Shown here piece by piece: positions 364 to 17,581 of a stretch of 26,641 nt of DNA. The position numbers and the translations under genes are program-made. Source of the DNA: Gammaproteobacteria bacterium (lineage in GTDB: Bacteria; Pseudomonadota; Gammaproteobacteria; Natronospirales; DASSBR01); assembly GCA_035700455.1 (NCBI GenBank), contig DASSOO010000236.1, forward strand, positions 1 to 26,641, given 5' to 3'. Below the pieces are notes generated by a model that was not told where the DNA came from, made no database searches, and saw only the letters and a list, made by a program, of their open reading frames with translations. Numbering within the stretch: the stretch's first letter is position 1; each line of letters opens with the position of its first letter.

Positions 364-393
364 GCGCGGCTCCGCCGGGCGGCTCCGCCGCGG

Positions 394-481
394 GGTCAGT
401 GGTCAGTGGTCAGTGGTTAGTGGTGAAGAATAAGATGGAAGACCCGCTTCCTCTAACCTCTTACCACTAACCACTAACCAC
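394..481. repeat. Heptamer inverted-repeat element 1
   Basis: GGT(C/T)AGT x4 plus GGT (394-424), then a purine-rich arm with inner stem GGAAG/CTTCC (437-441/447-451), then ACCACTA x2 plus ACCAC (463-481), the reverse complement of the left unit. Confidence 0.85.
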
Positions 482-503
482 GTACCGGCGGCCGTCAGGC
501 CGC

Positions 504-3500
504 CTAGTCAATATCGTCCGGCATTGCCGGCGCGTGATCCGGCGGCGGAATCGTCAGGTCCGTAATTGGCTTAAGACCGCCCTGGCGAAGCTGCGCGTTA
601 AGGTGCGCAAGCTCGCTGCTCTTGAATCGGCGCCATTCGGCGAGCGTGTGATCGAGGTAACCGAGATAGAGTTTCACCGCTTCGCGTTGCGGCGCGGTTG
701 GCGCGCGATCGGCGGCGCCGATGGCGCCGTAGAACGAGGTAAGCCGGCCGTTGAGGCCACTCAAGTCATGGCTATCGTGTGGGGCTTTGTTCAGCAGTTT
801 CTCCGTCGCGACATCGGCACGTTCAACCGCCTGCACGACGTCGCCATGAGCCTGTGACTTGCGCCGATCGAGTTGCGCGCGCAATGAGCGTACCTGCTGA
901 TACGCCGTGTAATCTTTCGCCAGCGCGGCCTCGATCTTCTGTTCCAGGGCAAGCTGTTCCTGCAGCGCGTTCTTGCTCACGTGCACGCGCGGGTCCATTT
1001 CGACGGTGAGCGGCTGCTTGTAGGTGTGGCCGTCGACCGTCAGCTTCACTTCGTATCGGCCCGGCAGCACCAGTGCGCCCTGCGGTTCGAGCGGCGTGTT
1101 TTCGCCGGCTACGGCGGCGATGGTGTAGCCGAAGCGGATTGCGTCGGGCAGGGGGTAGCGCAGGTTCCAGACAAAGCGATGTTCGCCCGCGTCAATGCCC
1201 GGCCGCGGTGCGGGCTTGATCCAGCTCTTCGCAAAATAGCGGAAGGCGTTGCGCTTTTGCGGCGGTTGGTTGCTTGCATAGCGGCGCACGAGCTTGCCGT
1301 GGCCGTCGTAGATCGCGAGCGAGACTGTGCGTGCGCCGCTCTTGAGGTAGTAGTCGATGATCGCGCCGGCGGGCGGGTTCTGGCCGGCGGGCTCTTCCGG
1401 CGGCAGCGGCGTATCGCGGTTTTCGTCGCGGCGTATGCGGATCGCCGTCGCCGGCTTGAACAAATAGGCGGACTTGTTATCCAGTTCGCCGGCGGCGATC
1501 TGGCGCAGCGGGCTTAAGTCGTCGAGCACCCAGAACGCACGGCCGAGCGTCGCGGCGACGAGGTCGCCGGCGTGAATCGTCAGGTCGCGCACCGAGGTCG
1601 CCGGCAGGTTCAGCGACAGTGGCTGCCAGTGGCCGCCGTCGTCGAACGAGACGTAGGCGCCCGTGTTCGTACCGGCATAGAGCAGGCCTTTCTGCTGCGG
1701 ATCGGCACGCACGACGTTGATGAATCCGTTATGCGGCAGGCCGGCGGTGATCGACGTCCAGGTACGGCCGTAATCGTGCGTGCGATAGACGTGCGGCGTA
1801 AAGTCGCCGACGCGGTGGCGGTCGACGGCAATGTAGGCGGCGGCGGGGTAGAGCGCGGAAGCGTCGACCGACGCAATCTTGCTCCAGTCGCGCACCGCTT
1901 TCGGCGTGACGTCGTGCCAGGTCTTGCCATTGTCGCGCGTCAGTTGCACGCGGCCGTTGTCGGTGCCGATCCAGATTTCGTTACCGTCGGCCGGTGACGG
2001 TTCAATGCTGTAGATCACACCGAAGCCGCAGGCAGTCGCCTCCGATATCGGCACGTGCGGCGCGTTGCAGCCTTTGGCACCCTGGCGCGCGCCCGTGAGG
2101 TCGGGGCTGATCTTTTCCCAGTGTTCGCCTTCGTCGGTGGTCGCGAACAAGTGCTGCGCGCCGACGTAGAGCGTGTACGGCGGCTTGTGGCGGATCGCCA
2201 TCGGCGTGAACCACGTGTAGCGGTTTTTGACGGTGTTCGGACGCGCGGCATAGGTCGAAATCGGCCACGGCGAAATGTTCTGCGATTGGCCGGTGCGCGC
2301 GTCGAAGCGGTTCACGTGGCCGCCCAAGCCGCTTGCGTAAACAATGTTCGCGTCGCGCGGGTCGGGAATATCGAAGTCGCGCTCGTCGCCGCCGACCGAG
2401 TACCAGTCGCGATAGGTGATCTCGCCGTAATCACTGCGGTTCTTGATCGCGACTGTGCCGCTGTCCTGCTGACCGCCGTAAATCCAATACGGGAAGCGGT
2501 TGTCGGTTTCGACGTGGTAGAACTGCCCGGTCGGCTGGTTGTACCAGCTCGACCAGGTTTTCGCAGCGTTGACGGTGACGACGGCGCCCTGGTCGGCGCC
2601 GGTGATCATGCGTTCGGGATGATCCGGGCTGATCCACAGCGTGTGGTAATCGTCGCCGCCAGGCGCACCCTTGATGATCGTGAACGTCTTGCCGCCGTCG
2701 GTCGAACGATGGATCGACTGGATCGGAATATAGATGGTGTTCGGGTCGTTGGGCGCGACGCGGATGTGACCGAAGTAGGAGCTTGCGAGCGCCGTACTGT
2801 CGTTGACGCGGGTCCAGTGCGCGCCGGCATCGTCGGAACGATAAACGCCGCCGGCGGTGTCGCTCTGAATCGCCGCATAGACGATGCGCCCATGACTGCC
2901 GCGCGCGACCGCGACGCCGATGCGCCCGAGCGCGCCGCCGGGCAAGCCGTTGCCGGAGAGCCGCTGCCAGGTGCGGCCTTCGTCGGTGCTCTTGTAAATG
3001 CCGCTGTGCGCTCCGACCGGCGCCTCGAAATAATCGAGCCACGGGCGTATGCGATCCTGCCATGCAGCGGCGTAGACGATGGACGGATCTTCGGAGTCGA
3101 ACGCGAGATCGACGATGCCGGTGTCGGCATTGACGTACAACGTCTTTTCCCATGTCTTGCCGCCGTCGTCCGAGCGGTAAACGCCGCGGTCGCTGCTCGG
3201 GCCGAACACCCGGCCGAGCGCTGCGACCAGCACGGTGTCGGGATGATGCGGGTCGACGAGGATGCGACCGATGTGACGTGTCGCGGCAAGGCCCATATGC
3301 TGCCAGGTCTTGCCGCCGTCCGTCGATTTATACACGCCGTTGCCGGATGCGATGTCGTAGCGTGTCGCGACCTGGCCCGTGCCGACATAGATCGTATTCG
3401 CGTCGGAAGGCGCGACCGCGAGCGCGCCGATCGACGAGCCGCCGGCGGCATCGAAGATCGATTGCCAGGTAACGCCGTCGTCGCTGCTTTTCCAGACGCC

Positions 3501-3689
3501 GCCGTCGGCGCTGCCGAACAGCCACACATCCGGATTGCCGGGCACGCCCGAAACCGCCGTCGCCCAGCCGGCACGGAACGGCCCGACGAGGCGCCATTGC
3601 ATGGACTGATAAGCGGATTGCGGGACGGTTGCCGCGAAGGCGCTCAGGGGCAGCAGGGCGCCCAAAAGTAACAGTAGCTTCTTGTGCAT
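504..3689 (-). CDS. Secreted BNR/Asp-box (VPS10/sortilin-like, GH74-like fold) beta-propeller protein, putative glycosyl hydrolase
   Basis: Signal peptide MHKKLLLLLGALLPLSAFA. It has many Asp-box repeats (SSDDGVTW, STDGGKTW, SDDGGKTW, TRDNGKTW, THDYGRTW). Start set at ATG 3689 because SD GGAGA lies upstream (3695-3700); the ORF track starts at 3704. Confidence 0.85.
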   Translation of the reverse strand: MHKKLLLLLGALLPLSAFAATVPQSAYQSMQWRLVGPFRAGWATAVSGVPGNPDVWLFGSADGGVWKSSDDGVTWQSIFDAAGGSSIGALAVAPSDANTIYVGTGQVATRYDIASGNGVYKSTDGGKTWQHMGLAATRHIGRILVDPHHPDTVLVAALGRVFGPSSDRGVYRSDDGGKTWEKTLYVNADTGIVDLAFDSEDPSIVYAAAWQDRIRPWLDYFEAPVGAHSGIYKSTDEGRTWQRLSGNGLPGGALGRIGVAVARGSHGRIVYAAIQSDTAGGVYRSDDAGAHWTRVNDSTALASSYFGHIRVAPNDPNTIYIPIQSIHRSTDGGKTFTIIKGAPGGDDYHTLWISPDHPERMITGADQGAVVTVNAAKTWSSWYNQPTGQFYHVETDNRFPYWIYGGQQDSGTVAIKNRSDYGEITYRDWYSVGGDERDFDIPDPRDANIVYASGLGGHVNRFDARTGQSQNISPWPISTYAARPNTVKNRYTWFTPMAIRHKPPYTLYVGAQHLFATTDEGEHWEKISPDLTGARQGAKGCNAPHVPISEATACGFGVIYSIEPSPADGNEIWIGTDNGRVQLTRDNGKTWHDVTPKAVRDWSKIASVDASALYPAAAYIAVDRHRVGDFTPHVYRTHDYGRTWTSITAGLPHNGFINVVRADPQQKGLLYAGTNTGAYVSFDDGGHWQPLSLNLPATSVRDLTIHAGDLVAATLGRAFWVLDDLSPLRQIAAGELDNKSAYLFKPATAIRIRRDENRDTPLPPEEPAGQNPPAGAIIDYYLKSGARTVSLAIYDGHGKLVRRYASNQPPQKRNAFRYFAKSWIKPAPRPGIDAGEHRFVWNLRYPLPDAIRFGYTIAAVAGENTPLEPQGALVLPGRYEVKLTVDGHTYKQPLTVEMDPRVHVSKNALQEQLALEQKIEAALAKDYTAYQQVRSLRAQLDRRKSQAHGDVVQAVERADVATEKLLNKAPHDSHDLSGLNGRLTSFYGAIGAADRAPTAPQREAVKLYLGYLDHTLAEWRRFKSSELAHLNAQLRQGGLKPITDLTIPPPDHAPAMPDDID

Positions 3690-3705
3690 TTTGTTCTCCC
3701 GCAAT

Positions 3706-3868
3706 AGTGCCTAGGACTAAGTGCCTAGGACTAAGTTAAGAGAAGAGTCCGCATCCTCTTGACGCATCCATTTGACAATGGCGGCTTCTCACGTAGCTCC
3801 GAAGAGAAGATTAGAGTAGGCGTACCACTCTTTTCCCACTCAGTCCCAGGCACTTAGTCCTGGGCACT
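3706..3868. repeat. 14-mer (2x7) inverted-repeat element 2
   Basis: AGTGCCTAGGACTA x2 plus AGT (3706-3736) is the reverse complement of 3838-3868 at 28/31 positions. An inner AAGAGT/ACTCTT pair is at 3743-3748/3827-3832. Confidence 0.9.
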
Positions 3869-3871
3869 TTC

Positions 3872-5965
3872 TTACGCCAGACCCCACTCCGCACTCAGCC
3901 CCGGATCGCGTATCTGCCACACGCCGCGGTGCAGCGCGTTCAGGCTGTCGATGTCCTGGAGCAAGTCGGACTTGTCGAGTTCGGTCAGCTTGTTTGGACC
4001 GAGCGTCAGCGCCTTGGTTCGCAGGCGTTGCAGGCGCTTGGCCTTTTCGGGCGGCATGCTGGTCTTCAGACGCAGCATCGCGATGTGGATCGCGTTGGTG
4101 TGCGGGTCGACGATGGTGTGCCGGAATACATCGGCCTGGCGTGCGTCGAGCGGCGCGAGATGCTCGTTCAATGCCGCGAGTTCCGGCGGCGGCACGATTT
4201 CTTCCGGAATCGAAAAGAGTTTCAGGTGGCGCGTCAGGCGGCCGAGCCGCACCCGGCTGAAGTAAACCGACAACGGCACCGAAAACACCAGCGCGATAAC
4301 AATCGGCGCGAGCCACCAGAAGAACGACGGGTTGAGCCAGTAGACGCCGGCCGCCCAGGCGATCGCGATGATCGTCGCGCCGCCGTGGTAGCGGATCGCC
4401 GTGAGCCAGTCGGTCTCGGCGTCCTCGCGCACCTGGCTGCCCCATTTGACCTGGCGGCCGAGCAGCGTCGTCAGCACGAACTTGGTGTGGAACAGCATGC
4501 GGATCGGCGCGAGCAGGCTGGCGACGACGGTTTCGAAGACGACGCTGACGCTGAGCGCAAAAAAGCCGCCGAACAGGCGCACCGGCGGGTTGCGCTTGAC
4601 GAGCAACAGCAGCCATGACAACAGCTTTGGCAGGAACAGCAGCGCCGCGGTCGAGGCGACCAGCGCCAGCGCCCAGTCCGGATGCCATTCGGGCCAGATC
4701 GGAAACAGACTGGGCTTGGACGAAAAATACTGCGTCGGCACCAGCGCCTGCACCGCGACTTCGGCGGTCGACAGCACCAGGAACAGCAGCCAGATCATCG
4801 CCGAGGTGTAGGCCATGACGCCGTTGATGAACATTGCGCGGTGCGCCGAGGCGAGGCCCTTCATGCCCATCAGCCGCAGGTGTTGGAGGTTGCCCTGGCA
4901 CCAGCGGCGGTCGCGCTTGAGTTCGTCGAGCAGCGTCGGCGGCGTTTCCTCGTAACTGCCGCCGAGGTCGTAGGCGACCCACACTTCCCAGCCGGCGCGG
5001 CGCATCAGCGCGGCTTCGACGAAGTCGTGGCTGAGAATCTCGCCGCCGAGCGGCGGTTCGCCCGGCAGCCGCGACAGCGCGCAGTGCTCGACGAACGGCT
5101 TGATGCGGATGATCGCGTTGTGGCCCCAGTAATAGGCTTCGCCGAGCTGCCAGAAATGAATGCCGGCGGTGAACATTGGCCCGTAGACGCGGTTCGCGAA
5201 CTGCTGAATGCGCGCGAACAGCGAAATGCGATTTGCGGTGACCGGCGGCGTCTGGATGATGCCGGCCTCGGGGCGCACTTCCATCATCTGTACCATGCGC
5301 ACCAGCGTGGTGCCGGCCATGACGCTGTCGGCGTCAAAGATAATCATGTAGCGGAACTGGCTGCCCCAGCGGCGGCAGAAATCCGCGATGTTGCCGCTCT
5401 TGCGTTTGATGTGCGTGCGCCGGCGCCGGTAGTGTACGCGGCCGAACGCGCCGAGCTCGCGGCACATCGCCGCCCATTCGAGTTCTTCCTCGACGCCGCG
5501 CACGGCGTCCGTCGTGTCGCTCAATACGAAGAAGTGGAAGTGATCGAGCTGGCCGGTCGCCTGCAAAGACAGGTACGTCGTGCGCAGGCCCGCGAACACG
5601 CGGCGCGCGTCCTCGTTGTAAACCGGCATCAGGATTGCCGTCGGCGCGAGCGCCGCCGAGTCGCTGCCACGGGCCTTGCAGATGCGCGTAATTGCGTGCC
5701 AGCGCGCGTTGAACAGCAGCGTGAAAAAACCGGCGAGTGCGGTCCAGAAGCCGACCGAAATCCACGCGAACAGCGCGATGAAAGTGGCGATGATCGCGAT
5801 TTCGAGCCAGGTCTGGCCGTGGTAGGGCAGGATCTGGATCATGTATTCGCCGGCGATCGTCGTCTGGATCGCGAGCAGCACGAACAGCACCAGGTGGCGC
5901 AGCGTCGCCGCGCGGCGCCAGTGCGGGTTGGCGGCGCGCAGTTGCTTGCGCGACAGCGGCGCCAT
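3872..5965 (-). CDS. opgH: Periplasmic glucan biosynthesis glucosyltransferase OpgH/MdoH (GT2 core plus TM helices), lacking the N-terminal cytoplasmic domain
   Basis: Motifs ILMPVYNED, KSGNIADFCRRWG, DADS, YWGHNAIIR, LSHDFVEAALMRRAGW and RDRRWCQGN. Start set at ATG 5965, with SD GGGGAG 7 nt upstream and a TGATG overlap with the upstream ORF. Confidence 0.95.
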   Translation of the reverse strand: MAPLSRKQLRAANPHWRRAATLRHLVLFVLLAIQTTIAGEYMIQILPYHGQTWLEIAIIATFIALFAWISVGFWTALAGFFTLLFNARWHAITRICKARGSDSAALAPTAILMPVYNEDARRVFAGLRTTYLSLQATGQLDHFHFFVLSDTTDAVRGVEEELEWAAMCRELGAFGRVHYRRRRTHIKRKSGNIADFCRRWGSQFRYMIIFDADSVMAGTTLVRMVQMMEVRPEAGIIQTPPVTANRISLFARIQQFANRVYGPMFTAGIHFWQLGEAYYWGHNAIIRIKPFVEHCALSRLPGEPPLGGEILSHDFVEAALMRRAGWEVWVAYDLGGSYEETPPTLLDELKRDRRWCQGNLQHLRLMGMKGLASAHRAMFINGVMAYTSAMIWLLFLVLSTAEVAVQALVPTQYFSSKPSLFPIWPEWHPDWALALVASTAALLFLPKLLSWLLLLVKRNPPVRLFGGFFALSVSVVFETVVASLLAPIRMLFHTKFVLTTLLGRQVKWGSQVREDAETDWLTAIRYHGGATIIAIAWAAGVYWLNPSFFWWLAPIVIALVFSVPLSVYFSRVRLGRLTRHLKLFSIPEEIVPPPELAALNEHLAPLDARQADVFRHTIVDPHTNAIHIAMLRLKTSMPPEKAKRLQRLRTKALTLGPNKLTELDKSDLLQDIDSLNALHRGVWQIRDPGLSAEWGLA

Positions 5966-6507
5966 CAGCCGGCTCCCCACAGGCGCCCGAGCCAGCGCCA
6001 CGGCGCCGGCCGGCGATCGATCTTGACCGGCGCCATGTTGATGCGCCGAATCGGCGGCATCGCCGCAAAGCGCAGATGGCCGGCGGCGTCGGTTTCCAGC
6101 GCGGTCTCCGGTACCGGGTGCTTGCCCGCGGCAAGCCAGTTGCGCAGGCGCCAGATCGCCGAGGCGGCCGTGGGGGTCGCGGCGCCTGTCGGCGTCGGCT
6201 CCGCGCGCCGCGCAAGCATGGCGGTAAGCGCGTCCATTACCAGCGTTACCGCACCTTCGCCGGAGGCCCAGGCCGGCTCGCGTGCGGCCGCGGCAATGGC
6301 CGCTTCGGCCAACTCGCGGACCTCACCGGGATCGAGGTCGAGGCGCGCGAGGTAGGCGCGCACGCGCTCGCTGGCGAGGCGCCAGTCGTCCAGCGGCGCG
6401 ACCGTCGCCGCCTCGCAGCACCGCACCGGCAGACGCCGACCGGCATCGTCGGAATCCGCCGGGGCGGGTGGCGGACTCAGGGTGGCGGCGGCAGCAGGAA
6501 GCTCCAT
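5965..6507 (-). CDS. Stand-alone ORF resembling the N-terminal domain of enterobacterial/pseudomonad OpgH; start uncertain
   Basis: C-terminal ETDAAGHLRFAAMPPIRRINMAP...WRWLGRLWG resembles the recalled E. coli MdoH segment KDDEGRDQLKAMPEAKRSSMFP...GRFWDRLRG. It lies between opgG and opgH, and its stop overlaps the opgH ATG. Confidence 0.65.
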   Translation of the reverse strand: MELPAAAATLSPPPAPADSDDAGRRLPVRCCEAATVAPLDDWRLASERVRAYLARLDLDPGEVRELAEAAIAAAAREPAWASGEGAVTLVMDALTAMLARRAEPTPTGAATPTAASAIWRLRNWLAAGKHPVPETALETDAAGHLRFAAMPPIRRINMAPVKIDRRPAPWRWLGRLWGAG

Positions 6508-8018
6508 GTCTCCGATACCGTATCGTTGCCGTTTTTCAGGAAGGCCCGTAATTCGAGCGGCTTGTTCGGCGGCTTGATCTGGAACACCAGCCGCCAGCCG
6601 CCGGTCACGGGGTTGCGCTCGATATTGTTCTGCAGCAATTTACCGCCGTCGCCGACGGTGATCACGCCGTGACCATCGGCATTGTCCGGCAAGCCCGACA
6701 GTTCCTTGCTGTCGAAGTCGAGCACGATGCGTTTGCTGCCGGGCGTATCGCCATCGCCGATGTAGGTGCCGGTCACCTTGCCCGACGGCGGCTCGGGCGC
6801 GTAGTCCGTCCAGTTGAGCGTATAGGCGATGTTAATCGGATCGCCGACCTTCGGCACCGTCTTCGGCACCCAGAACGCGACGATGTTGTCGTTCACTTCC
6901 TTGTCGCTTGGGATTTCGACCAGCGTGACGGCGCCATCGCCCCAATCGCCTTTCGGTTCGATCCAGGCGCTTGGGCGCGTGTCGTAGCGCGCTTCGAGAT
7001 CTTCATAGTCGTAGAAGTGCCGGTCGCGCTGCATCAGGCCGAAGCCGCGCGGATTGGTCAACTGGAACGAACTGATAACGAGCTGCGACGGGTTGATCAG
7101 CGGCCGCCAGATCCATTCGCCGGTGCTCGAATGCACCAGCAGGCCGTCGGAATCGTGGACCTCCGGGCGCCAGTAGCCTTTCGGCCGATCGGAATCCTCG
7201 CCGTAAAAGAACATGCTGGTGAGCGGCGCGATACCGAGCTCGTCGATCTTGGCGCGCTCGAACAGCGTTGCCTTGACATCGACCGTGGTCGTGTCGCCCG
7301 GCTTGATCAGGAACTGGTAGGCACCTGTCACGCGCTTGCTGTCGAGCAGCGCATAAACCATCATCTGGTCGGCATCCGGCGCCGGGCGCACCAGCCAGAA
7401 TTCCTTGAAGAACGGGAACTCCTCGCCGGTCTGCAAACCAGTGTCGACGGCAAGGCCGCGGGCCGACAGGCCGAAGTTTTCGTCGGCGCCGACCGCGCGA
7501 AAATAACTTGCGCCGGCGAACACGATGAACTGGTTCTGTACGTCCTTGGTGTGCAGCGGGTAAGTAAGCTTGAATCCGGCAAAGCCCAGGTCGGCGGGAA
7601 TCTTGTCGACGAACTTGTTGTGCCCGTAGTCAAAATACGTCGTCGAATACTGCACCTGGTGAACGCCCGCCGCGTCGATAATGTTGATCGCCACCGAGTG
7701 GTCGTAATACAGCCCCGGATGAATCAGCATGACCTGAAATTTCGTATTCGACTGGTGCCACAACGCCTGCTCGGGCTTGAAGCGGATATCGCGGAACGCG
7801 TCGTAGCTGATGTTCTTGAGAAAATCCGGGATCGGTTTCGGCGGCTGAAACGGCTTGGCGGCGAGCTCCTTCGCTTGCTGCACGACATTGTCGAAACCGA
7901 ACGGCGCAGCGCCGGCGGGCATCGAGACGGCGGTCATGGCGGCGGCAAAGGCAAAAATGAACGAACCGGGGCGGGGGCTTTTAGGCGTTTTGATTCTCGC
8001 GGCGGCCTTCATTGTCAC
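6477..8018 (-). CDS. opgG: Periplasmic glucan biosynthesis protein OpgG/MdoG
   Basis: Motifs FAGASYFRAVG, FGLSARGLA, RPEVHDSDGL, FGLMQRDR and DNIVAFW; signal peptide; GTG start with SD AGGAGA. Confidence 0.95.
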   Translation of the reverse strand: MTMKAAARIKTPKSPRPGSFIFAFAAAMTAVSMPAGAAPFGFDNVVQQAKELAAKPFQPPKPIPDFLKNISYDAFRDIRFKPEQALWHQSNTKFQVMLIHPGLYYDHSVAINIIDAAGVHQVQYSTTYFDYGHNKFVDKIPADLGFAGFKLTYPLHTKDVQNQFIVFAGASYFRAVGADENFGLSARGLAVDTGLQTGEEFPFFKEFWLVRPAPDADQMMVYALLDSKRVTGAYQFLIKPGDTTTVDVKATLFERAKIDELGIAPLTSMFFYGEDSDRPKGYWRPEVHDSDGLLVHSSTGEWIWRPLINPSQLVISSFQLTNPRGFGLMQRDRHFYDYEDLEARYDTRPSAWIEPKGDWGDGAVTLVEIPSDKEVNDNIVAFWVPKTVPKVGDPINIAYTLNWTDYAPEPPSGKVTGTYIGDGDTPGSKRIVLDFDSKELSGLPDNADGHGVITVGDGGKLLQNNIERNPVTGGWRLVFQIKPPNKPLELRAFLKNGNDTVSETWSFLLPPPP

Positions 8019-8073
8019 GGCCTGTTCTCCTTCCTGCTGCGGGCCTTGTCGAAATAATGATCTGGAACATGCA

Positions 8074-8102
8074 AGTATACTGCCGCCGCCCGGCCTCCGC
8101 AG
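8074..8102 (-). promoter_or_regulatory. Possible opgG promoter (CTGCGG-N17-TATACT)
   Basis: Good -10 TATACT at 8079..8074; the -35 position is non-canonical. Confidence 0.35.
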
Positions 8103-8138
8103 CCGGGGCGATACCTCCCACTGCCAATCGTCATCAAC

Positions 8139-8167
8139 CTGCGGTCCGCCGAAGGCTGAACTATACT
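8139..8167 (+). promoter_or_regulatory. Possible promoter of the paralogue array (CTGCGG-N17-TATACT; CTATACT is sigmaS-like)
   Basis: CTATACT at 8161-8167, followed directly by hairpin GGCCTA-ggaccg-TAGGCC (8169-8186). Confidence 0.4.
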
Positions 8168-8216
8168 TGGCCTAGGACCGTAGGCCCATGAGGCGCGGGG
8201 CGAGCGCCAGAATAAG

Positions 8217-8423
8217 AACCGGCAATGGTGGCGCCGCGAAGAAGCCCAGGCGGTCCAGCTGGATGTTTGCAGGTCTGCGGGTGCGGCGGGCGGCCTTGTA
8301 GCCGAGTTGCAGGCACTCAAAGGCCGCTATGTTGCGTTTTAACTGCCGATCGCTTACGGCAAGTTTCGTGCACTGATGAAGGCGCTGCCGGCAGCGCAGA
8401 AGGAGGCGAGTAATGAACAATAA
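8217..8423 (+). pseudogene. 5'-truncated, nonsense-mutated copy of the downstream secreted protein family
   Basis: Hand translation NRQWWRREEAQAVQLDVCRSAGAAGGLVAELQALKGRYVAF*LPIAYGKFRALMKALPAAQKEASNEQ*. TAA at 8340-8342 sits where the 8900 paralogue has GAA. No in-frame start codon after the TAG at 8181. Confidence 0.85.
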
Positions 8424-8604
8424 ATTTCTGATAGCCGCACTTCTCGGTATTGTCGCACTGCCGGCACTTTCGCTGGCTGCACAGTCGCAGCCGGCAGCGC
8501 AGCCGGTTCAAAAAAAGGTTCAGTTGCAGGGCAGCTCGCTCGGTACCATCACCGTCACCAGCAGCCAGATTCAGGCGTTGCAGGCGATCAAGGCGGCGCT
8601 GCAT
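8373..8604 (+). repeat. 232-bp direct repeat copy 1, spanning a gene junction
   Basis: Matches 8860-9091 at offset 487 with 13 mismatches by hand count and no indels. Confidence 0.9.
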
Positions 8605-8910
8605 AGAGAATATTCGACGGATGCCGCCGATGCCGACAAGCTGGTATGTCACATTTCAAAGATCGGCGGCACGCATATCAACAAGACGTTGCGTTGTGAG
8701 ACTAATCGGCAGTGGTGGCGCCGCGAAGAGGTGCAAGCCGTGCAAATGATGCTATCAAACATGGCCGGGCGAACCGGCGGCCTCGTCGCCGCGTTGCAGA
8801 CCCTGCATGGTCGGAACGCCGCATTCGCGATTCCGATCGACTACGGTCGGTTTCACGCCCTGATGAAGGCGCTGCCGGCAGGGCAGAAGGAGGTGAATAA
8901 TGAGCAATAA
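8413..8910 (+). CDS. Hypothetical secreted protein A (165 aa; signal peptide, C-x15-C motif)
   Basis: SD AAGGAGG; signal peptide MNNKFLIAALLGIVALPALSLA; motif DADKLVC-x15-CETNRQWW; conserved with three paralogues. Confidence 0.85.
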   Translation: MNNKFLIAALLGIVALPALSLAAQSQPAAQPVQKKVQLQGSSLGTITVTSSQIQALQAIKAALHREYSTDAADADKLVCHISKIGGTHINKTLRCETNRQWWRREEVQAVQMMLSNMAGRTGGLVAALQTLHGRNAAFAIPIDYGRFHALMKALPAGQKEVNNEQ

Positions 8911-9091
8911 ATTTCTGATAGCCGCACTTCTCGGTATTCTCGCACTGCCGGCACTTTCACTGGCCGCACAGTCGCAGCCGGCAGCGCAGCCGGTTCAAAA
9001 AAGGATTCAGTTGCAGGGCAGCTCGCTCGGCGCCATCACCGTCACCAGCAGCCAGATGCAGGCGTTGCAGGCGATCAAGGCGGCGTTGCAT
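8860..9091 (+). repeat. 232-bp direct repeat copy 2
   Basis: Partner of the 8373-8604 copy. Confidence 0.9.
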
Positions 9092-9403
9092 CGCGATTAC
9101 TCCATGAGTGGCAGGGATGCCGACAAACTGGTATGCCATATTTCCACGATCGGCAGTTCACACGTGAACAAGACGCTGACTTGCGAAACGAATCGGCAGT
9201 GGTGGCGGCGGGAAGAAGTCCAGGCGGTGCAGCTGAACATTTCCCGTATGGAAAGCAGAGAGTCGTCGCACCCTGTGCTACTGGCGCTCCAGGCTCTCAG
9301 GGGCCGCAACGTAGCATTCGAACTGCCTATCAACTACAGCCGATTTCACGCATTAATGAAAGCCGTACCGGAACCTGCAAGCGGCAAAGCCGGAGACCAA
9401 TAA
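8900..9403 (+). CDS. Hypothetical secreted protein B (167 aa), tandem paralogue of A
   Basis: SD AAGGAGG and a near-identical N-terminus. The C-terminal half keeps its amino-acid motifs despite many synonymous changes, which indicates purifying selection. Confidence 0.85.
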   Translation: MSNKFLIAALLGILALPALSLAAQSQPAAQPVQKRIQLQGSSLGAITVTSSQMQALQAIKAALHRDYSMSGRDADKLVCHISTIGSSHVNKTLTCETNRQWWRREEVQAVQLNISRMESRESSHPVLLALQALRGRNVAFELPINYSRFHALMKAVPEPASGKAGDQ

Positions 9404-9409
9404 ACAGGC

Positions 9410-9943
9410 TTACAGGCACTTCGCCAGCGGCTCGTGCGGCAGCTTGGCCATCAGCGCCTTGATCTTCGACGAATTGACTTCGGGCAGATTCGCCGCAAGC
9501 AGCGAAGCTGACGCCACGCCGTGGCTGCTGCGCAGCATCGACCCGATGCCGGGGCGCGGCGCTGTCCTGGCGTTCTCGTACTGGGCCGTGATCTGCGCAT
9601 TGGTAGCGCACCAAAGATGATTCGCAAGATGGCTGCCGGTGACCTTGACGAACCGGCACACGAGCAGGTCGGCGTCGGCCGGGCTGGTCGAATAAGCGCG
9701 GTCCAGCGCGAACTTGATCGTGTCGAGAATGCAGATCGGCGTGAGCTTGCGGCCGTTGACCGTGATCTGCCCCAGGTTTTCGCTGTGCCGCGCGGCGCCC
9801 GCCCCGGCGGGGGCGGGCACTACTTGCGTCGTTGGAATATCGGCAGCGCCGGCGAACGCGGCCTCCGGCGCGATGAACAGCGGGCCCAGCACAAGCGGGA
9901 GCGCCAAGCTTTTGATTACATGGAACTTGCTGAAACGGGCCAT
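9410..9943 (-). CDS. Hypothetical secreted protein D (177 aa), divergent inverted paralogue
   Basis: LGQITVNG...IKFALDRAYSTSPADADLLVC-x15-CATN...KIKALMAKLP aligns with A/B LGTITVTS...IKAALHREYSTDAADADKLVC-x15-CETN...RFHALMKALP. It has an AGGA SD and a signal-peptide-like N-terminus. Confidence 0.8.
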   Translation of the reverse strand: MARFSKFHVIKSLALPLVLGPLFIAPEAAFAGAADIPTTQVVPAPAGAGAARHSENLGQITVNGRKLTPICILDTIKFALDRAYSTSPADADLLVCRFVKVTGSHLANHLWCATNAQITAQYENARTAPRPGIGSMLRSSHGVASASLLAANLPEVNSSKIKALMAKLPHEPLAKCL

Positions 9944-9978
9944 CGGTTGCGTCCTGCTGTTTTGGGATTCCGTTACTG

Positions 9979-10007
9979 AATATGTGACCCCTGAATGGCC
10001 TTGTCAA
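9979..10007 (-). promoter_or_regulatory. Sigma70-like promoter for protein D (TTGACA-N17-CATATT)
   Basis: TTGACA at 10007..10002, 17-nt spacer, CATATT at 9984..9979. Confidence 0.55.
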
Positions 10008-10015
10008 ATCCTGTG

Positions 10016-10044
10016 TTGACACTCGGGGCGCGATTTCCCATACT
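10016..10044 (+). promoter_or_regulatory. Sigma70 promoter of the metF-metH leader (TTGACA-N17-CATACT)
   Basis: Consensus -35, 17-nt spacer and CATACT; predicted TSS near 10051. Confidence 0.75.
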
Positions 10045-10063
10045 TAAACCGTCCTTCAGGGAC

Positions 10064-10113
10064 CGCGCCGATTTGATGATCAGCTTGCGGGCGCGCTAAA
10101 AGTACCGCTAAAG
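10064..10113 (+). ncRNA. SAM-II (SAM_alpha-type) riboswitch aptamer 1
   Basis: P1 CGCGCC/GGCGCG, with GATTT, TTGC, TAAA and GCTAAAG in SAM-II order; upstream of methionine genes. Confidence 0.85.
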
Positions 10114-10120
10114 AGGTGCC

Positions 10121-10154
10121 ACCCGCTTTAGCTCAAGCTGAATGCGGGTTTTTT
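10121..10154 (+). terminator. Intrinsic terminator forming the expression platform of aptamer 1
   Basis: ACCCGC-TTTAGC-tcaa-GCTGAA-T-GCGGGT followed by a T run (10149-10154). Its 5' arm CTTTAGC is complementary to aptamer GCTAAAG. Confidence 0.8.
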
Positions 10155-10164
10155 GTTGCCCGCG

Positions 10165-10224
10165 CTCGCCGAGTTTCGTGACGCGTTTGCGGGGCGAGAT
10201 AGAAATACTGCTAAAGGCGCGTCA
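10165..10224 (+). ncRNA. SAM-II-like riboswitch aptamer 2 (tandem)
   Basis: P1 CTCGCC/GGCGAG (10165-70/10193-98), GAGTTT, TTGC and GCTAAA (10210-15). A perfect 7-bp pseudoknot pairing TGACGCG/CGCGTCA lies at 10179-85/10218-24. Confidence 0.75.
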
Positions 10225-10237
10225 AAGGCGCTTGAAA

Positions 10238-11190
10238 ATGACAGATGCGAAGGATTGCGCGCCGCGCTCCGGCTCCGGCCGGGTGCGGGTTTCATTCGAA
10301 TTCTTTCCACCAAAGACCCGCGACATGGAGACGGCACTGTGGGGTGCGATTCAGCATCTCGCACCGCTCGCGCCGGATTTCGTCTCGGTGACCTACGGCG
10401 CCGGCGGTTCGACGCGCGAACGCACGCATGCGACTGTTGAACGCCTCCGCCGCGAGACTGAACTCGAACCGGCGGCGCATCTGACTTGCGTCGGCGCAAC
10501 GCGCGCTGAGATCGACGCGGTCGCCGAGCGTTACTGGGAGGCGGGCATCCGCCACGTGGTCGCGCTGCGCGGCGACCCTCCGGCCGGCGCAACGCGCTTC
10601 GTGCCGCATCCGGGCGGTTATACGCGCGCTGCCGAACTGGTCGCCGGCCTGAAGCGCATCGGCGACTTCGAAGTCAGCGTCGGCGCGCATCCGGAAACGC
10701 ACCCCGATGCAGCTTCGCCGGAAGCCGACCTGGACAATCTCAAGGCGAAGATCGACGCCGGTGCGAGCCGCGCGATTACACAATACTTTTTCGATGCCGA
10801 CGTATACTTGCGGTTTCGCGACCGCGTACGTGCGGCCGGCATCGATGCGCCGTTGGTGCCGGGAATTCTGCCGGTAACGAATTTCACACAGGTGCTCAAG
10901 TTCAGTGCCGCCTGCGGCGCCAGCGTGCCGAAGTGGCTCGCGAAGCTGTTCGACGGGCTCGACGACGAGCCGGAAACGCGTCAACTGGTCGCCGCGAGCG
11001 TCGCCGCGGAGCAGTGCCGGCGCCTCAAGGCCGAAGGCGTACACGAGTTTCACTTCTATACTCTCAACCGCGCGGCGCTGACGGTCGCAATCTGTCGCGT
11101 GCTGGGGCTCAAACCGCGTGAAAGCGGCGTCAGCCGCGAATCCGCCGTGCCGGCCATTGCAGCGGAAGCTACTCCTACCGGATCGTTCTG

Positions 11191-11191
<1 letters not shown>
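10238..11191 (+). CDS. metF: 5,10-methylenetetrahydrofolate reductase MetF
   Basis: [40 protein letters not shown] and FHFYTLNR. The ORF-track start at 10142 lies in the terminator/riboswitch, so ATG 10238 is preferred. Confidence 0.97.
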
Positions 11192-14895
<3,704 letters not shown>

Positions 14896-14914
14896 CGCAC
14901 GCCGGAACGCGGCG

Positions 14915-15379
14915 TCAGCCGAGCGCTTTTGCCGCCTCCAGCACTTCCGCCGCGTGGCCCGGCGCCTTGACCTTGCGCCATTCCTGGCGCAGTACGCCGT
15001 TTCCGTCGATCAGGAAGGTGCTGCGCTCGATGCCCATTACCTTCTTGCCGTACATGTTCTTTTCCTTGATGACGTCGAACATGCCGCACAGCGTTTCGTC
15101 GGTATCTGAAATCAGGTCGAACGGAAAGTTCTGCTTGGCCTTGAAGTTTTCGTGCGACTTGACGCTGTCGCGCGAGACGCCGACGACGACGGTGTTGAGC
15201 TTTTTGAACTTGTCGTGCAGGTCGCGGAACTCCTGGCCCTCGATCGTGCAACCGGGCGTCGCATCTTTTGGATAGAAGTACAGCACGACATTCTTGCCGG
15301 CAAAATCTTTGAGGCCTAGCGTTTTCTCGCCGGTGGCCGGCAGTTTGAATTGCGAAACTTTTTTACCCACGCTTACCAT
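14915..15379 (-). CDS. bcp: Peroxiredoxin Bcp/PrxQ
   Basis: YFYPKDATPGCTIE, GVSRD and ERSTFLID; SD AAGGAGA. Confidence 0.95.
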   Translation of the reverse strand: MVSVGKKVSQFKLPATGEKTLGLKDFAGKNVVLYFYPKDATPGCTIEGQEFRDLHDKFKKLNTVVVGVSRDSVKSHENFKAKQNFPFDLISDTDETLCGMFDVIKEKNMYGKKVMGIERSTFLIDGNGVLRQEWRKVKAPGHAAEVLEAAKALG

Positions 15380-15472
15380 GACGATCTCCTTGAACGTGTA
15401 ATAACTTTTACGCCGCTCCCGCAGGAGCGGTCTGCAGATTGCGATTCCCTGAAATCCTCCAGGACCAGGGCC

Positions 15473-16003
15473 TTAGTTTTTCATCGGCTCGATAATCGCG
15501 TCCAGATTGATCCGGTCGCAGAGGTCCATAAATTCTTCGCGCAAGGCGGCGATGGCGGTGTCGGTCGGAATTGCGACGACCATCTGGATCGCGAACAGCG
15601 GCGCGCCGGTCTGCGGTGCCGGATAGGCGCGCGTGCTCATTTCCGAAATCTGAATTTCGCGCTCGATGAAAAAATCGGCCAGGTGATGCACGATGCCGGC
15701 GCGGTCCGCGGCGATCGCGTCTATGGCGTATGGAATGAGTTCCTGGCGCGACGGGCGTTCGTGGCTGCGGTGCGCGGTAATTTCGAGTTCGAGCGTTTCT
15801 TCGAGGCGTGGCAGCATGGCTTCGAGCCGCGCGATATTGTTCCAGCTTCCGCCGGCGAGCAGTTGCAGCGCGAATTCCTCGCCGAGCAGCGTCATGCGGC
15901 TGTCCTTGACCTGGCAGCCGCTGTCGAGCACCGCGCGGGTGACTTCGCGCAGCAGGCCGGGACGCTCCTTCCCGAGCACGGAAATAGCCAGGTACTGTTT
16001 CAT
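15473..16003 (-). CDS. gcvR: GcvR-like double ACT-domain regulator
   Basis: MKQYLAISVLGKERPGLL...SRMTLLGEEFA...ADRAGIVHHLADFF; canonical bcp-gcvR / dapA synteny. Start set at ATG 16003. Confidence 0.85.
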   Translation of the reverse strand: MKQYLAISVLGKERPGLLREVTRAVLDSGCQVKDSRMTLLGEEFALQLLAGGSWNNIARLEAMLPRLEETLELEITAHRSHERPSRQELIPYAIDAIAADRAGIVHHLADFFIEREIQISEMSTRAYPAPQTGAPLFAIQMVVAIPTDTAIAALREEFMDLCDRINLDAIIEPMKN

Positions 16004-16036
16004 TTTGTTTGTGGGATTGAGAAACCGCACAGTTTA

Positions 16037-16064
16037 GCCGGTGGCGGCTGCCGCCGCCACCGGC
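16037..16064. repeat. Perfect 12-bp palindrome with a 4-nt loop
   Basis: GCCGGTGGCGGC-TGCC-GCCGCCACCGGC. Confidence 0.8.
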
Positions 16065-16066
16065 GA

Positions 16067-16185
16067 CAGGTAATGGGTAATAGGTTGTGGGTTATAGGAA
16101 GAGTTAAGACGGGCAGGCTGACGAGCACCATTTTTCTTGTCTGACTCTTCTTACCTGTGACCTATAACCTGTAACCCATTACCTG
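16067..16185. repeat. Heptamer inverted-repeat element 3 in the gcvR/dapA divergent spacer
   Basis: CAGGTAA TGGGTAA TAGGTTG TGGGTTA TAGG on the left and ACCTGTG ACCTATA ACCTGTA ACCCATT ACCTG on the right. The outer 12 bp pair perfectly, and an inner GAAGAGT/ACTCTTC pair is present. Confidence 0.85.
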
Positions 16186-16204
16186 CGGCCCCCTCACGCC
16201 ACCC

Positions 16205-16233
16205 TTGCGACCCGCGCGCTCGGGCCTTACCAT
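16205..16233 (+). promoter_or_regulatory. Sigma70 promoter of dapA (TTGCGA-N17-TACCAT)
   Basis: Near-consensus hexamers with a 17-nt spacer, 30 nt upstream of the ATG. Confidence 0.6.
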
Positions 16234-16263
16234 GCGAACCTTTCATCTCCGGATACAGGCCGC

Positions 16264-17139
16264 ATGTTCCACGGCAGCATGGTCGCGCTGGTGACGCCGA
16301 TGACGGCCGGCAGCGACGTCGACATGGAGGCGTTGGAGCGCCTGATCGAATTTCATGTCGAGAACGGCACCGACGCGCTGGTGCCGGCCGGCACGACCGG
16401 CGAGTCGGCGACGTTGATGACACCCGAACATATCAACTACCTGCGCGCGGTCGTGAAGCTGGTGCGGGGCCGGTTGCCGGTAATCGCGGGTACCGGTTCC
16501 AATTCGACCGCCCAGACGCTCCACCTGACGCGTGAAGTCGCAAAAATCGGTGTCGATGCCTGTCTGCTCGTGGTGCCGTATTACAACAAGCCGCCGCAGG
16601 AAGGCTTGTATCAGCACTTTCATACGATCGCTAACGCGGTCGACATACCTCTGGTTCTGTACAATGTGCCGAGCCGTACCGCCTGCGACCTCTTGCCGGA
16701 AACGGTGGAGCGGCTGGCACGCGTCGTAAATATCGTCGGCATCAAGGAAGCTACCGGCGACATCGGCCGGGTCCGCGAACTGCGGACGCGCTGCGGCGAG
16801 GAGTTCGAACTCTACAGCGGCGACGACGCGACGGCGATGGAGTTTGTGCTGGCCGGCGGTGACGGCGTCGTATCGGTTACTGCCAACGTCGCGCCGCGCC
16901 TGATGCATGAAATGATCGCCGCGGCGCGCGCGGGCGAGCGCGAGCGTGCCGAGGAACTCGACGCGAAGTTGCGGCCGCTGCACCGGGCGTTGTTTACCGA
17001 AACCAATCCGATTCCGGCAAAATGGGCGCTTGCCGAGATGGGTCTCATCGGTAGCGGCATTCGCCTGCCGCTTGTGCCGCTGTCGGGTTCGCACCAGCCG
17101 GCGGTGCGCGCCGCACTCACCGCGGCCGGCTGCGTATGA
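16264..17139 (+). CDS. dapA: 4-hydroxy-tetrahydrodipicolinate synthase
   Basis: GTTGES, VIAGTGSNST, PYYNKP, LYNVPSRT, GIKEATG, SGDD and NPIPAK. Confidence 0.97.
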   Translation: MFHGSMVALVTPMTAGSDVDMEALERLIEFHVENGTDALVPAGTTGESATLMTPEHINYLRAVVKLVRGRLPVIAGTGSNSTAQTLHLTREVAKIGVDACLLVVPYYNKPPQEGLYQHFHTIANAVDIPLVLYNVPSRTACDLLPETVERLARVVNIVGIKEATGDIGRVRELRTRCGEEFELYSGDDATAMEFVLAGGDGVVSVTANVAPRLMHEMIAAARAGERERAEELDAKLRPLHRALFTETNPIPAKWALAEMGLIGSGIRLPLVPLSGSHQPAVRAALTAAGCV

Positions 17140-17164
17140 GTTGCGTTTTCTGCAAAGGTTGCCA

Positions 17165-17461
17165 ATGAAAAACTGGATTCTTCCGGCCGCCGCTCTCGCG
17201 GCCGCCGCCGTTTTGGCCGGCTGCGCTTCGTCGCCTTGCCGCGACGTACTCGATTATCGGAGCGCGCGTCAGGCCGCACCGCCGACGATTCCGCAAGGAA
17301 TGGCGCCGCTTGCACCCGATGTCGCCTATGACATTCCGTCCGGCAAGTTTGCTACCGAAAACCCGAAAACGAAGGCGCAGTGCATCGCTTACCCACCGCA
17401 GGTGGTGAAGCCGGGCGAGAAGGCGGAGCCGGCGGAGCCGGCGGAGCCAGTGAAAGAATAG
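17165..17461 (+). CDS. 98-aa outer-membrane lipoprotein resembling the BamC/NlpB N-terminus
   Basis: Lipobox LAGC; DYRSA...PPTIPQGM.P....YDIP resembles the BamC N-terminal loop; located directly after dapA, as bamC is in enterobacteria. Confidence 0.7.
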   Translation: MKNWILPAAALAAAAVLAGCASSPCRDVLDYRSARQAAPPTIPQGMAPLAPDVAYDIPSGKFATENPKTKAQCIAYPPQVVKPGEKAEPAEPAEPVKE

Positions 17462-17484
17462 CGGCGTGTGGCGGCGGCTGTGCT

Positions 17485-17581
17485 GCGGGTTCGGGCTTAG
17501 TGGTTCGAGGTTAGCGGAAGAAGAAGAGCGAGCGACAGCGTGAATTCGGCTCGGTCCACCACTAACCACTAACCACTAACC
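17485..17581. repeat. Heptamer inverted-repeat element 4 between convergent genes, overlapping the lipB 3' end
   Basis: Degenerate left units GCGGGTT CGGGCTT AGTGGTT CGAGGTT, a GAA-rich arm, and ACCACTA x3 plus ACC on the right (17558-17581). Confidence 0.8.

Follow-up and report, generated by a model that had tools for sequence, protein, structure and literature searches.

Heptanucleotide-periodic intergenic hairpins in a soil gammaproteobacterium: possible gene-less relatives of intervening-sequence cassettes

Heptamer repeats, described as STRR sequences in 1990 and as G-rich repeats of Xanthomonas and Nostoc in 2015, are abundant in several phyla, and to our knowledge they have no accepted origin or function. 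In Xanthomonas, GGGAATC repeats form 70-75 convergent pairs of plus and minus orientation (PMC4692102). The 23S rRNA intervening sequence (IVS) of Coxiella combines a 28-bp terminal stem that is cut by RNase III with an SD-like AGAAGA box and with heptamers whose number varies between strains (PMC4990558). Here, we compare these systems with four intergenic hairpin elements in a window of 26,641 nucleotides from a soil gammaproteobacterial MAG (G000; 2.3 Mb assembled, 71% complete), and we consider it somewhat likely that they belong, as miniature members that lack a gene, to a family of palindromic insertion cassettes and are relatives of the IVS-type cassettes.

The sequence of the four elements (Table 1) is as the original prediction had described it. 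TRF detected arrays of period 7 or 14 (394-424/453-481 in element 1, 3706-3736/3837-3869 in element 2, 16153-16185 in element 3 and 17488-17514/17558-17581 in element 4), and the inverted arms are 24-37 nt long and 78-90% complementary; the end of element 1, previously placed at 481, extends to 486. Element 1 is located between co-directional genes, and the lipB reading frame (minus strand) ends inside the C-rich arm of element 4. The GGCGGCTCCGCCGCG motif was found directly 5' of the G-rich arm in eight of 12 intergenic copies (seven of class A, one of class D). RNA folding, expressed as z-scores against dinucleotide shuffles, was pronounced for element 3 (z = -10.5/-5.6), element 2 (z = -9.4) and element 1 (z = -5.2 on the plus and -7.5 on the minus strand), and weakest for element 4 (only -2.8/-2.9).

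Table 1. Positions of the repeat arms, boxes and adjoining features of the four elements in the window.
Feature	Position	Strand	Description
GC-rich mini-palindrome GGCGGCTCCGCCGCG	378..392	.	abuts element 1 arm
Element 1 G-rich arm	394..424	+	GGTCAGT x3, GGTTAGT, GGT; class A, 31 nt
Element 1 purine box GAAGAATAAGATGGAAGA	425..442	+	box general across the family
Element 1 C-rich arm	452..486	+	inner two units degenerate, pyrimidine-rich; then ACCACTA units
Element 2 left arm	3706..3736	+	14-mer AGTGCCTAGGACTA x2 + AGT; class D, 31 nt
Element 2 purine box TAAGAGAAGAG	3737..3747	+	
Element 2 unique core	3748..3827	.	no similarity to cores of other copies
Element 2 pyrimidine box CTCTTTTCCC	3828..3837	+	
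Element 2 right arm	3838..3868	+	reverse complement of class D arm, 31 nt; then TTCTTA
GC-rich hairpin adjoining element 3	16038..16063	.	within ~150 nt that sister genomes lack in the orthologous spacer
Element 3 G-rich arm	16066..16098	+	class E: GGTAATG / GGTAATA / GGTTGTG / GGTTATA units
Element 3 purine box AAGAGTTAAGA	16099..16109	+	
Element 3 pyrimidine box ACTCTTCTT	16144..16152	+	
Element 3 C-rich arm	16153..16185	+	
Element 4 G-rich arm	17488..17517	+	degenerate class A units
Element 4 purine box AAGAAGAAGAG	17518..17528	+	
Element 4 C-rich arm	17558..17581	+	ACCACTA x3.4; then TTTCTTCC

As had been predicted, the elements belong to a dispersed hairpin family with one plan that is enriched throughout the genome, with at least 60 complete elements and about 70 further arrays in the MAG. 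Near-perfect runs of at least three units numbered 45 at period 7, compared to 1, 0, 0 and 0 at the control periods 8, 10, 11 and 13, respectively, and none in a Markov-shuffled genome, while 128 of 217 TRF rows of period 7 and 76 of 103 of period 14 were intergenic versus 15 of 97 of period 8. The 7-nt periodic pattern is thus beyond chance genome-wide. However, the expected density of one element per 6-7 kb does not extend beyond the window, since complete elements occur only about once per 35-40 kb of assembled sequence. The ground plan is strict. In 5' to 3' direction, a G-rich arm is followed by a purine box (AAGAR) and, after a core of 12-172 nt, by a pyrimidine box and the arm complementary to the first; a short purine run 5' of the first arm opens the whole cassette. 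Arms are built of 7- or 14-nt units and measure about 31 nt, and some arrays are as long as 20 units. The polarity is uniform: in all 60 elements with complementary arms, the left arm is G-rich and the right arm C-rich, and purines make up 78% of the first but 23% of the last 10 nt of the core. Of 59 G arrays, 31 had a partner on the right and none on the left, and C arrays showed the mirror image. Whole elements folded with a mean of -58 kcal/mol versus -32 kcal/mol in shuffles, and sense and antisense folds were equally stable (p = 0.33), which gives no indication that one of the two RNA strands is under selection.

The view that this family is conserved in architecture and not in sequence proved only half right, because arm classes are shared between loci. 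While the common plan holds strictly, the arm units fall into about five classes, GGTNAGT (class A), AGTGCCTAGGACTR (class D), GGGRCTG (class B), GGGRTTC (class C) and GGGTAAT/AGGTTAT (class E), which recur at more than 100 loci and have a genome-specific consensus. Class A arms mostly read (GGTNAGT)4+GGT and class D arms, in 65 half-elements, consist of two 14-mers plus 3 nt, both amounting to 31 nt. The 14-mer of class D forms an imperfect palindrome by itself, in contrast to single units of classes A, B, C and E, and at least eight elements carry a left and a right arm of different class. The two arms of an element matched each other no better than arms drawn from other elements of the same class (permutation p = 0.45-0.84), which indicates that pairing is a property of the class and not the result of element-specific covariation. 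No similarity was found between the cores of different copies, which are unique in sequence and length; this is unexplained by any simple copy-and-paste model and, like the elements with arms of two classes, is a point against the explanation favored here. The elements also differ from MITEs, with which they share terminal inverted repeats, in that their outer flanks are inverted (AAGAA / TTCTT) and not direct and that they have no internal sequence in common.

Comparison of orthologous spacers indicates that the elements are inserts. The orthologous ACT/dapA spacer of five sister genomes and of three other relatives lacks element 3 together with about 150 nt, and the spacer of element 2 is empty in the sister genomes G002 and G003; since sister species lack them at the orthologous sites, the elements are evidently dispensable. 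All copies seen are located between protein-coding genes, with a median distance of 4 nt between the stop codon and the arm compared to 32 nt between the arm and the next start, and seven of 53 lie in divergent spacers. Different species also carry elements in the same spacer, each species with a variant of its own, and elements 1 and 4 are located at synteny breaks. The dominant arm variant differs by genome, with one such variant in each: the GGTTAGT pattern had 72 matches in G000 versus 0-5 in sister genomes, G004 contained 66 matches of its own class D variant AGTCGCYAGGACT, and G005 contained 127 matches of GGGRTTC.

Judged from gene neighborhoods, the best candidate for a partner of these arms appears to be the gene for a PF05635 protein rather than for a RAYT. 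PF05635 denotes the 23S rRNA intervening-sequence protein, an Avd-like four-helix bundle. Three PF05635 genes of sister genomes lie exactly between arms of class C or D, with the purine box acting as SD, and in 41 genomes of the order 12 out of 15 PF05635 genes were bracketed by inverted 7-nt-periodic arms of the same polarity. The cargo gene between the arms in these relatives is intact and has its own SD. Its presence in the core of the full form in sister genomes and the order suggests that the cassettes are of the same kind as the ORF-bearing IVSs of 23S rRNA. Neither the window nor the 71% complete G000 yielded a PF05635 gene, and since tblastn recognised no PF05635 remnants in the cores, we infer the descent of gene-less from gene-bearing copies only from their shared arms and boxes.

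Stems of 31-37 bp have the size of an RNase III substrate, and RNase III excises IVSs in Coxiella, Salmonella and Leptospira. By analogy, the inserts are probably tolerated because their RNA stem of about 31 bp is such a substrate, and the role of RNA processing signal, one of those originally proposed, is plausible on the same grounds. The cassette, observed as an insert directly 3' of a stop codon that fills the spacer, would be transcribed with its neighbors from either side, and its arms and boxes are predicted to fold into an RNA stem of 31-37 bp, cleavage of which by RNase III would release the insert from the host transcript and render the insertion nearly harmless. The RNase III gene is present in G000, the assembly of which does not include a 23S rRNA gene. 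Finally, arms are copied or homogenised within each genome, and different classes have bloomed in different species; the obvious candidate for this step would be the PF05635 protein acting in trans, and neither a RAYT nor a reverse transcriptase was found in G000.

It appears unlikely that the elements are instead regulatory structures selected by the host, be it bidirectional terminators or mRNA 3'-end stabilisers, G-quadruplex (G4) switches, or arrays of sites for single-strand binders (cold-shock protein, S1) that control translation of the next gene. Their position tight behind stop codons, their strong hairpins and a slightly elevated T content after the stem (3.3 of 10 nt versus a background of 1.9) would be consistent with such functions, as would the in vitro formation of G4 by GGGAATC and GGGGAYT repeats (PMC4692102) and the translational roles proposed for TAACTGA repeats (PMC4679880) and Nostoc heptamers (bioRxiv 10.1101/2022.06.06.494920). 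However, five or more T within 10 nt after the stem were found in only 29% of the elements, with no difference from sides without an incoming gene (p = 0.2), so that the elements do not fit the pattern of intrinsic terminators, a stem directly followed by a U-tract on the incoming-gene side. Moreover, promoters were not enriched in the cores, and the elements are absent from sister orthologous sites and present also in divergent spacers. The four G-tracts of the G4-forming repeats of Rehm et al. occur only in classes B, C and E, while GGG runs are lacking from arms of class A (GGTNAGT) and class D (14-mer), to which elements 1, 2 and 4, three of the four in the window, belong. Since these two classes retain the same arm of about four units or 31 nt, G4 formation cannot explain the arm length, which argues against a G4 explanation.

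Quite improbable is a movement of the elements as REP/REPIN/BIME-type sequences by a RAYT, a Y1 tyrosine transposase that reads the hairpin as single-stranded DNA. The suggestion of a REP-like mobile hairpin was borne out with respect to insertion, given the empty sister sites, but not to the enzyme, since no RAYT/TnpA was found in G000. Extragenic inverted pairs that form hairpins with a genome-specific consensus resemble REPs, which are likewise reported to recur at the same spacer across species with their own variants, and the palindromic class D 14-mer and RAYT-like genes in two sister genomes also favor this possibility. In contrast, no Y1 transposase was found in G000 (71% complete) or G004, the genomes of the class A and D blooms, and the only RAYT-like gene whose surroundings were inspected, that of G005, is bordered by another inverted repeat and not by heptamers. 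In addition, single units of classes A, B, C and E are not palindromes, the elements have no GTAG or CGTC tag, and the cores are unique, as opposed to the conserved spacers of REPINs.

An origin as microsatellites grown in place by slippage, with pairing as a by-product and no insertion, is very improbable. Although long arrays, the variable copy number of published heptamer repeats and a total of 7 gap letters (a sum that carries no gap positions) in contigs of two other samples spanning element 1 would fit, growth in place is largely refuted by an arm length and phase fixed at both ends, by the recurrence of few unit classes under strict polarity, by empty orthologous sites that lack the whole element including core and boxes, and by arms that bracket a cargo gene in relatives. 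Healing of breaks by a templated, telomerase-like activity adding G-rich heptamers to both 3' ends is barely conceivable, since the universal inward polarity of the G strand, the two-class arms and the synteny breaks at elements 1 and 4 are outweighed by fixed arm length and ends, which are hard to reconcile with variable additions, by the lack of a detectable reverse transcriptase in G000 and by the intact cargo gene with its own SD.

Returning to the insertion cassettes, our best reading is that they represent the same phenomenon as the STRR of cyanobacteria and the GGGAATC repeats that form convergent pairs in Xanthomonas. A further-reaching proposal, which we regard as speculative and rather unlikely as a whole, is a distinct class of mobile elements encoding neither transposase nor reverse transcriptase, in which the small PF05635 (Avd-like) protein would recognise the 7-nt-periodic arms and drive copying or homogenisation of arm modules in trans while RNase III would remove the insert from host RNA, so that one mechanism would underlie the excess of heptanucleotide repeats long noted in bacterial genomes, cyanobacterial STRR and the origin of rRNA IVSs. 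The genus offers a clean natural experiment in this respect, with a different bloomed arm class in each sister species and both empty and filled orthologous sites. The arms enclosing an intact, conserved PF05635 gene tie heptamer repeats to selfish IVS-type inserts and suggest that rRNA IVSs are the visible tip of a much larger insert family. Bacterial heptamer repeats thereby gain a testable frame, namely cutting of the stems by RNase III and binding of the arms by the PF05635 protein.

Among the known systems, REP, BIME and REPIN sequences (PMC3116915, PMC3733652) are likewise short extragenic inverted pairs that form hairpins, with an own consensus per genome and several coexisting families, but differ by their RAYT, of which no cognate was found in G000 (71% complete), by their GTAG or CGTC tag, and by arms and cores that are here mostly not self-palindromic and unique in sequence and length, respectively. 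The TAACTGA repeats of Beggiatoaceae, cyanobacteria and Bacteroidetes (MacGregor, 2015; PMC4679880) are similar as heptamer arrays in spacers close to start codons, with a G-poor sense strand upstream of genes and a patchy phylogenetic distribution suggestive of transfer. In contrast to our elements, they comprise one word only and are almost all direct without an inverted partner (169 direct sets versus one indirect).

Closer are the GGGAATC repeats of Xanthomonas, the GGGGAYT repeats of Nostoc (Rehm et al., 2015; PMC4692102) and STRR, for which the comparison made at the outset was apt: all are intergenic tandem 7-nt units, about four of which are preferred, with the same polarity and convergent pairs. 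In the Xanthomonas and Nostoc repeats, as here, it is the G-rich strand that adjoins the ORF on its 5' side, irrespective of ORF orientation. Many of the repeats overlap or follow a stop codon, fewer occur between divergent genes, and their length differs between close species; classes B (GGGRCTG) and C (GGGRTTC) use almost the same words. Most copies here, including three of four in the window, nevertheless use units unable to form G4, and the published account of those repeats (PMC4692102) describes no 14-mer class, no AAGAR boxes, no arm fixed at 31 nt and no association with a cargo gene.

The ORF-bearing IVSs of 23S rRNA (Coxiella burnetii S23p; Leptospira; PMC4990558) are inserted into helix 9, 25 or 45 of the rRNA, while the copies described here lie between protein-coding genes, are gene-less in the window, number dozens per genome in several arm classes and would be cut by RNase III only by inference. 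Both, however, have terminal inverted repeats (a stem of 28 bp in Coxiella and about 31 bp here), an SD-like purine box just inside the stem (AGAAGA there, AAGAR here), heptamer repeats of variable number between strains and a sporadic, selfish-looking distribution, and both carry PF05635 cargo, here in the sister-genome copies of the same arm classes.

The original prediction described four intergenic hairpins in the window, and reading the sequence confirmed all of them: arm length ranges from 24 to 37 nt and complementarity between arms from 78 to 90%, and TRF reported arrays of period 7 or 14 at the two arms of elements 1, 2 and 4 and at the right arm of element 3. The proposed dispersed heptamer family was also found to be enriched throughout the genome that holds the window (G000, a MAG of 2.29 Mb in 427 contigs with 63.6% G+C and 71% completeness), in which clean runs of at least three units numbered 45 for period 7, 0-1 for periods 8-13 and 0 in the Markov-shuffled genome. 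Likewise, 128 of the 217 TRF rows of period 7 and 76 of the 103 rows of period 14 were intergenic, compared with only 15 of the 97 rows of period 8. A partner search yielded 60 complete elements with complementary arms (total length 78-274 nt, cores 12-172 nt), and about 70 additional skewed arrays were either single or had a degenerate partner. All 60 elements have the same polarity, with a G-rich left arm and a C-rich right arm, and G arrays have partners only to their right and C arrays only to their left. The core opens with a purine box, its first 10 nt being 78% purine, and closes with a pyrimidine box, where purines make up 23% of the final 10 nt.

Locations of the elements, associated repeats and neighboring features in the window, in other contigs of G000 and in loci of relatives (L-numbers)
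Feature	Location	Remark
Element 1	394-486	window
Element 2	3706-3868	window
Element 3	16066-16185	window
Element 4	17488-17581	window
Mini-palindrome GGCGGCTGCGCCGCC	378-392	window
Other copies of GGCGGCTGCGCCGCC in G000, including	C227:10042, C27:3726, C425:2404, C427:94
Synteny breaks	1-500, 17140-17600	window, elements 1 and 4
Logan joints	3737-3837	window
Copy supplying a joint insert	C226:4763	G000
98-aa ORF	17165-17461 (+)	window
SAM-II riboswitch (SAM_alpha, RF00521)	10055-10132	window
349-aa ORF	10142-11191	window
MetH-domain ORF	11191-14895	window
REP-like palindrome	L198 2460-2500, L199 3430-3465	relatives
RAYT-like gene	L111 1417-2410	G005:C50
RAYT-like gene	L112	G003:C19
Reverse transcriptase locus	L113	G004:C73:6067-9627

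The earlier claim that architecture and not sequence is conserved held for the common plan, which is stricter than first seen, but not for the arms, which are not free in sequence and fall into about five classes, mixed within at least eight elements. The class D arm is a fixed 31 nt, consisting of two copies of a 14-mer followed by AGT, with aAGAA on its 5' side and nAAGAr on its 3' side (65 half-elements), and its variation is limited to four A/G positions. The class A arm mostly comprises four GGTNAGT units and a final GGT, also 31 nt, immediately followed by AAGA. A preference for about four units has been ascribed to G-quadruplex formation by Rehm et al. (PMC4692102); in G000 it extends to units incapable of forming quadruplexes. 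The GC-rich mini-palindrome GGCGGCTGCGCCGCC lies immediately 5' of a G-rich arm in eight of its 12 intergenic copies (seven class A, one class D), and in contig C227 the motif also forms a 14-nt tandem array on the opposite side of the element. Arrays were rejected as a cause of assembly breaks, with 14 of 854 contig ends near an array, about the expected number.

Predicted RNA folds are far stronger than those of dinucleotide shuffles, with z scores between -5 and -10 in elements 1-3 and near -2.8 in element 4. The mean fold energy was -58 kcal/mol; it was -32 in shuffles and -39 after reversal of the right arm. No element-specific arm covariation was found, and since the arms of an element paired no better with each other than with other arms of the same class (permutation p = 0.45-0.84), arm pairing is a property of the class. 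This goes part of the way towards the refutation named in the original prediction (arm pairing no better than that of shuffled heptamer arrays), but the hairpins are real despite this class-level pairing. Discordance between the two arms at position 28 of class D exceeded expectation (Fisher p = 0.009, uncorrected). The energy difference between sense and antisense RNA, as a sign of strand selection, was not significant.

Comparison with related genomes demonstrated insertion of the elements. A stretch of about 150 nt comprising element 3 and a GC hairpin does not occur in the ACT/dapA spacer in five sister genomes and three further relatives, in which the promoter-like motifs on either side of the missing stretch can still be aligned. 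The spacer of element 2 is empty in sister genomes G002 and G003 and contains a different repeat in G001; in G004 it is occupied by a shorter element, which has an arm variant of its own and whose core is unrelated. Immediately 3' of lipB an element occurs in four of six genomes, with differing classes. The median distance from the stop codon of the preceding gene to the element is 4 nt, and that from the element to the next start is 32 nt; 15 reading frames terminate within an arm. Co-directional genes flank the element in 35 cases, convergent genes in 11 and divergent genes in 7.

Elements 1 and 4 are located at synteny breaks. In the window element 4 lies between the convergent genes dapA and lipB; in sister genomes the gene after lipB has a product starting MQKFQL...PMYNKGTVF, presumably malic-enzyme-like, and dapA and a small ORF are followed by tRNA-like and SRP-RNA-like sequence and dnaX. 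The 98-aa ORF immediately 3' of dapA, which is a conserved gene of 91-92 aa in relatives, has a lipoprotein-like N-terminal hydrophobic stretch with a Cys and a PAEPAEP repeat tail; a longer ORF overlapping it had no Pfam match. A different REP-like palindrome (CCCTCTCCC ... GGGAGAGGG) is found in spacers of relatives, including the BNR/GT2 spacer of G001 (L105), and has only three copies in G000.

Each species has its own arm-class bloom. Class A, counted with the pattern GGTTAGT, has 72 matches in G000, 0-5 in sister genomes and essentially none in the rest of the order, a private class D variant has 66 matches in G004, and class C (GGGRTTC) has 127 in G005 and 37 in G002, with 135 in G000 for the combined pattern of classes B (GGGRCTG) and C. 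Compared with a 99.3%-identical contig of another sample (L194), element 3 shows 6 differences in 112 nt and its flanks 4 in 1386 (Fisher p = 2.5e-5), a per-base difference about 18 times that of the flanks, pointing to hypermutability at this site or to conversion by other copies. In contigs of two other samples that cross element 1, alignment to the window gave 7 gapped letters altogether, tabulated without gap positions. Logan contigs aligned to the window mainly break at arms; the joints are probably other class D copies, and one sequence inserted there is the core of such a copy.

By dapA, the closest relatives are MAGs of uncultured soil organisms labelled "Gammaproteobacteria bacterium", and several independent soil metagenomes contain sequence near-identical to the window. 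No relatives of intermediate divergence were found, with metagenome contigs reaching at most 67% identity and the protein search returning only matches of ~100% or <=81%. Four "gill metagenome" runs of one study also contain 75-81% of the words sampled for this soil-type organism, the best soil run being only slightly higher, and the organism could be a water/sediment passenger or a contaminant there. The sole Rfam match in the window is a SAM-II riboswitch upstream of the 349-aa and MetH-domain ORFs; it initially pointed to an alphaproteobacterium, but the protein relatives are gammaproteobacterial.

As to the origin of the elements, the cognate RAYT/TnpA suggested in the original prediction did not materialize: neither a Y1 transposase/RAYT nor a reverse transcriptase was found in G000 (71% complete). 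RAYT-like tyrosine transposase genes do occur in sister genomes G005 and G003, but the inverted repeat of 16 nt on the flanks of the G005 gene, GGGGTCAGAGCTTGAC, is unrelated to the heptamers, and this repeat system is absent from G000. The reverse transcriptase of G004 had its best NCBIfam match, below cut-off, to group II intron RT. Because it adjoins a weak match to the Avd-like family PF05635 and a baseplate hub gene of phage/GTA type, it probably belongs to a prophage-borne diversity-generating retroelement unrelated to the heptamer elements. Genes located between two elements offered no enzyme candidate and are housekeeping genes (prfC, glyA, nrdR, ssb, rpsU and others). Canonical terminators were rejected, as the T-tract is weak and independent of the incoming gene, and so were pre-existing terminator hairpins as the source of the cores, with a median fold z of -0.56, only 8% below -2, and empty orthologous sites devoid of cores. 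A promoter role of the cores was dismissed on sigma-70-like scores not above shuffles, and their origin as copies of other DNA on BLAST searches, all-against-all and against the genome, that gave self matches only.

A different candidate is the 23S-rRNA intervening-sequence (IVS) protein family PF05635, which was not found in G000 (71% complete). Three PF05635 genes of sister genomes lie exactly between arms of classes present in G000, namely class C at one orthologous site in G002 and G005 and class D in G002, and in the G005 cassette the purine box is the Shine-Dalgarno sequence of the gene. The two class C cargo proteins, judged by eye, appear about 80% identical, similar to housekeeping genes at the same divergence. 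Across 41 genomes of the order, inverted 7-nt-periodic arms bracket 12 of 15 PF05635 genes, with at least six different words and the G-rich arm always upstream in the sense of the gene. In another genus of the order, a cassette stands in five genomes (L204, L206, L207, L208, L209) 5' of a conserved sequence that, read by eye, we take to be the start of an adenosylhomocysteinase-like gene, and its arms have differing heptamers (GTGCTGC versus GGGGTGA). Architecture, enrichment, polarity, insertion, species-specific blooms and the association of arms with PF05635 are direct observations, and we lean towards the view that the window elements belong to a family of IVS-type cassettes as miniature members without a gene. 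Such elements would be transcribed and cut by RNase III, the gene for which is present in G000, and the PF05635 protein may have a role in their spread.

Similar arrangements have been reported elsewhere. In the Coxiella IVS the terminal stem, 28 bp long, is cut by RNase III in mid-stem, an AGAAGA box resembles a Shine-Dalgarno sequence, and the heptamer repeats differ from strain to strain (PMC4990558). In Beggiatoaceae TAACTGA arrays are located upstream of start codons (PMC4679880). Three consecutive GGGAATC units had no match among 300 Gammaproteobacteria, a sample evidently without Xanthomonas; in that genus 70-75 convergent GGGAATC pairs have been described, and their polarity relative to neighboring ORFs is the same as that of the G000 elements (PMC4692102).
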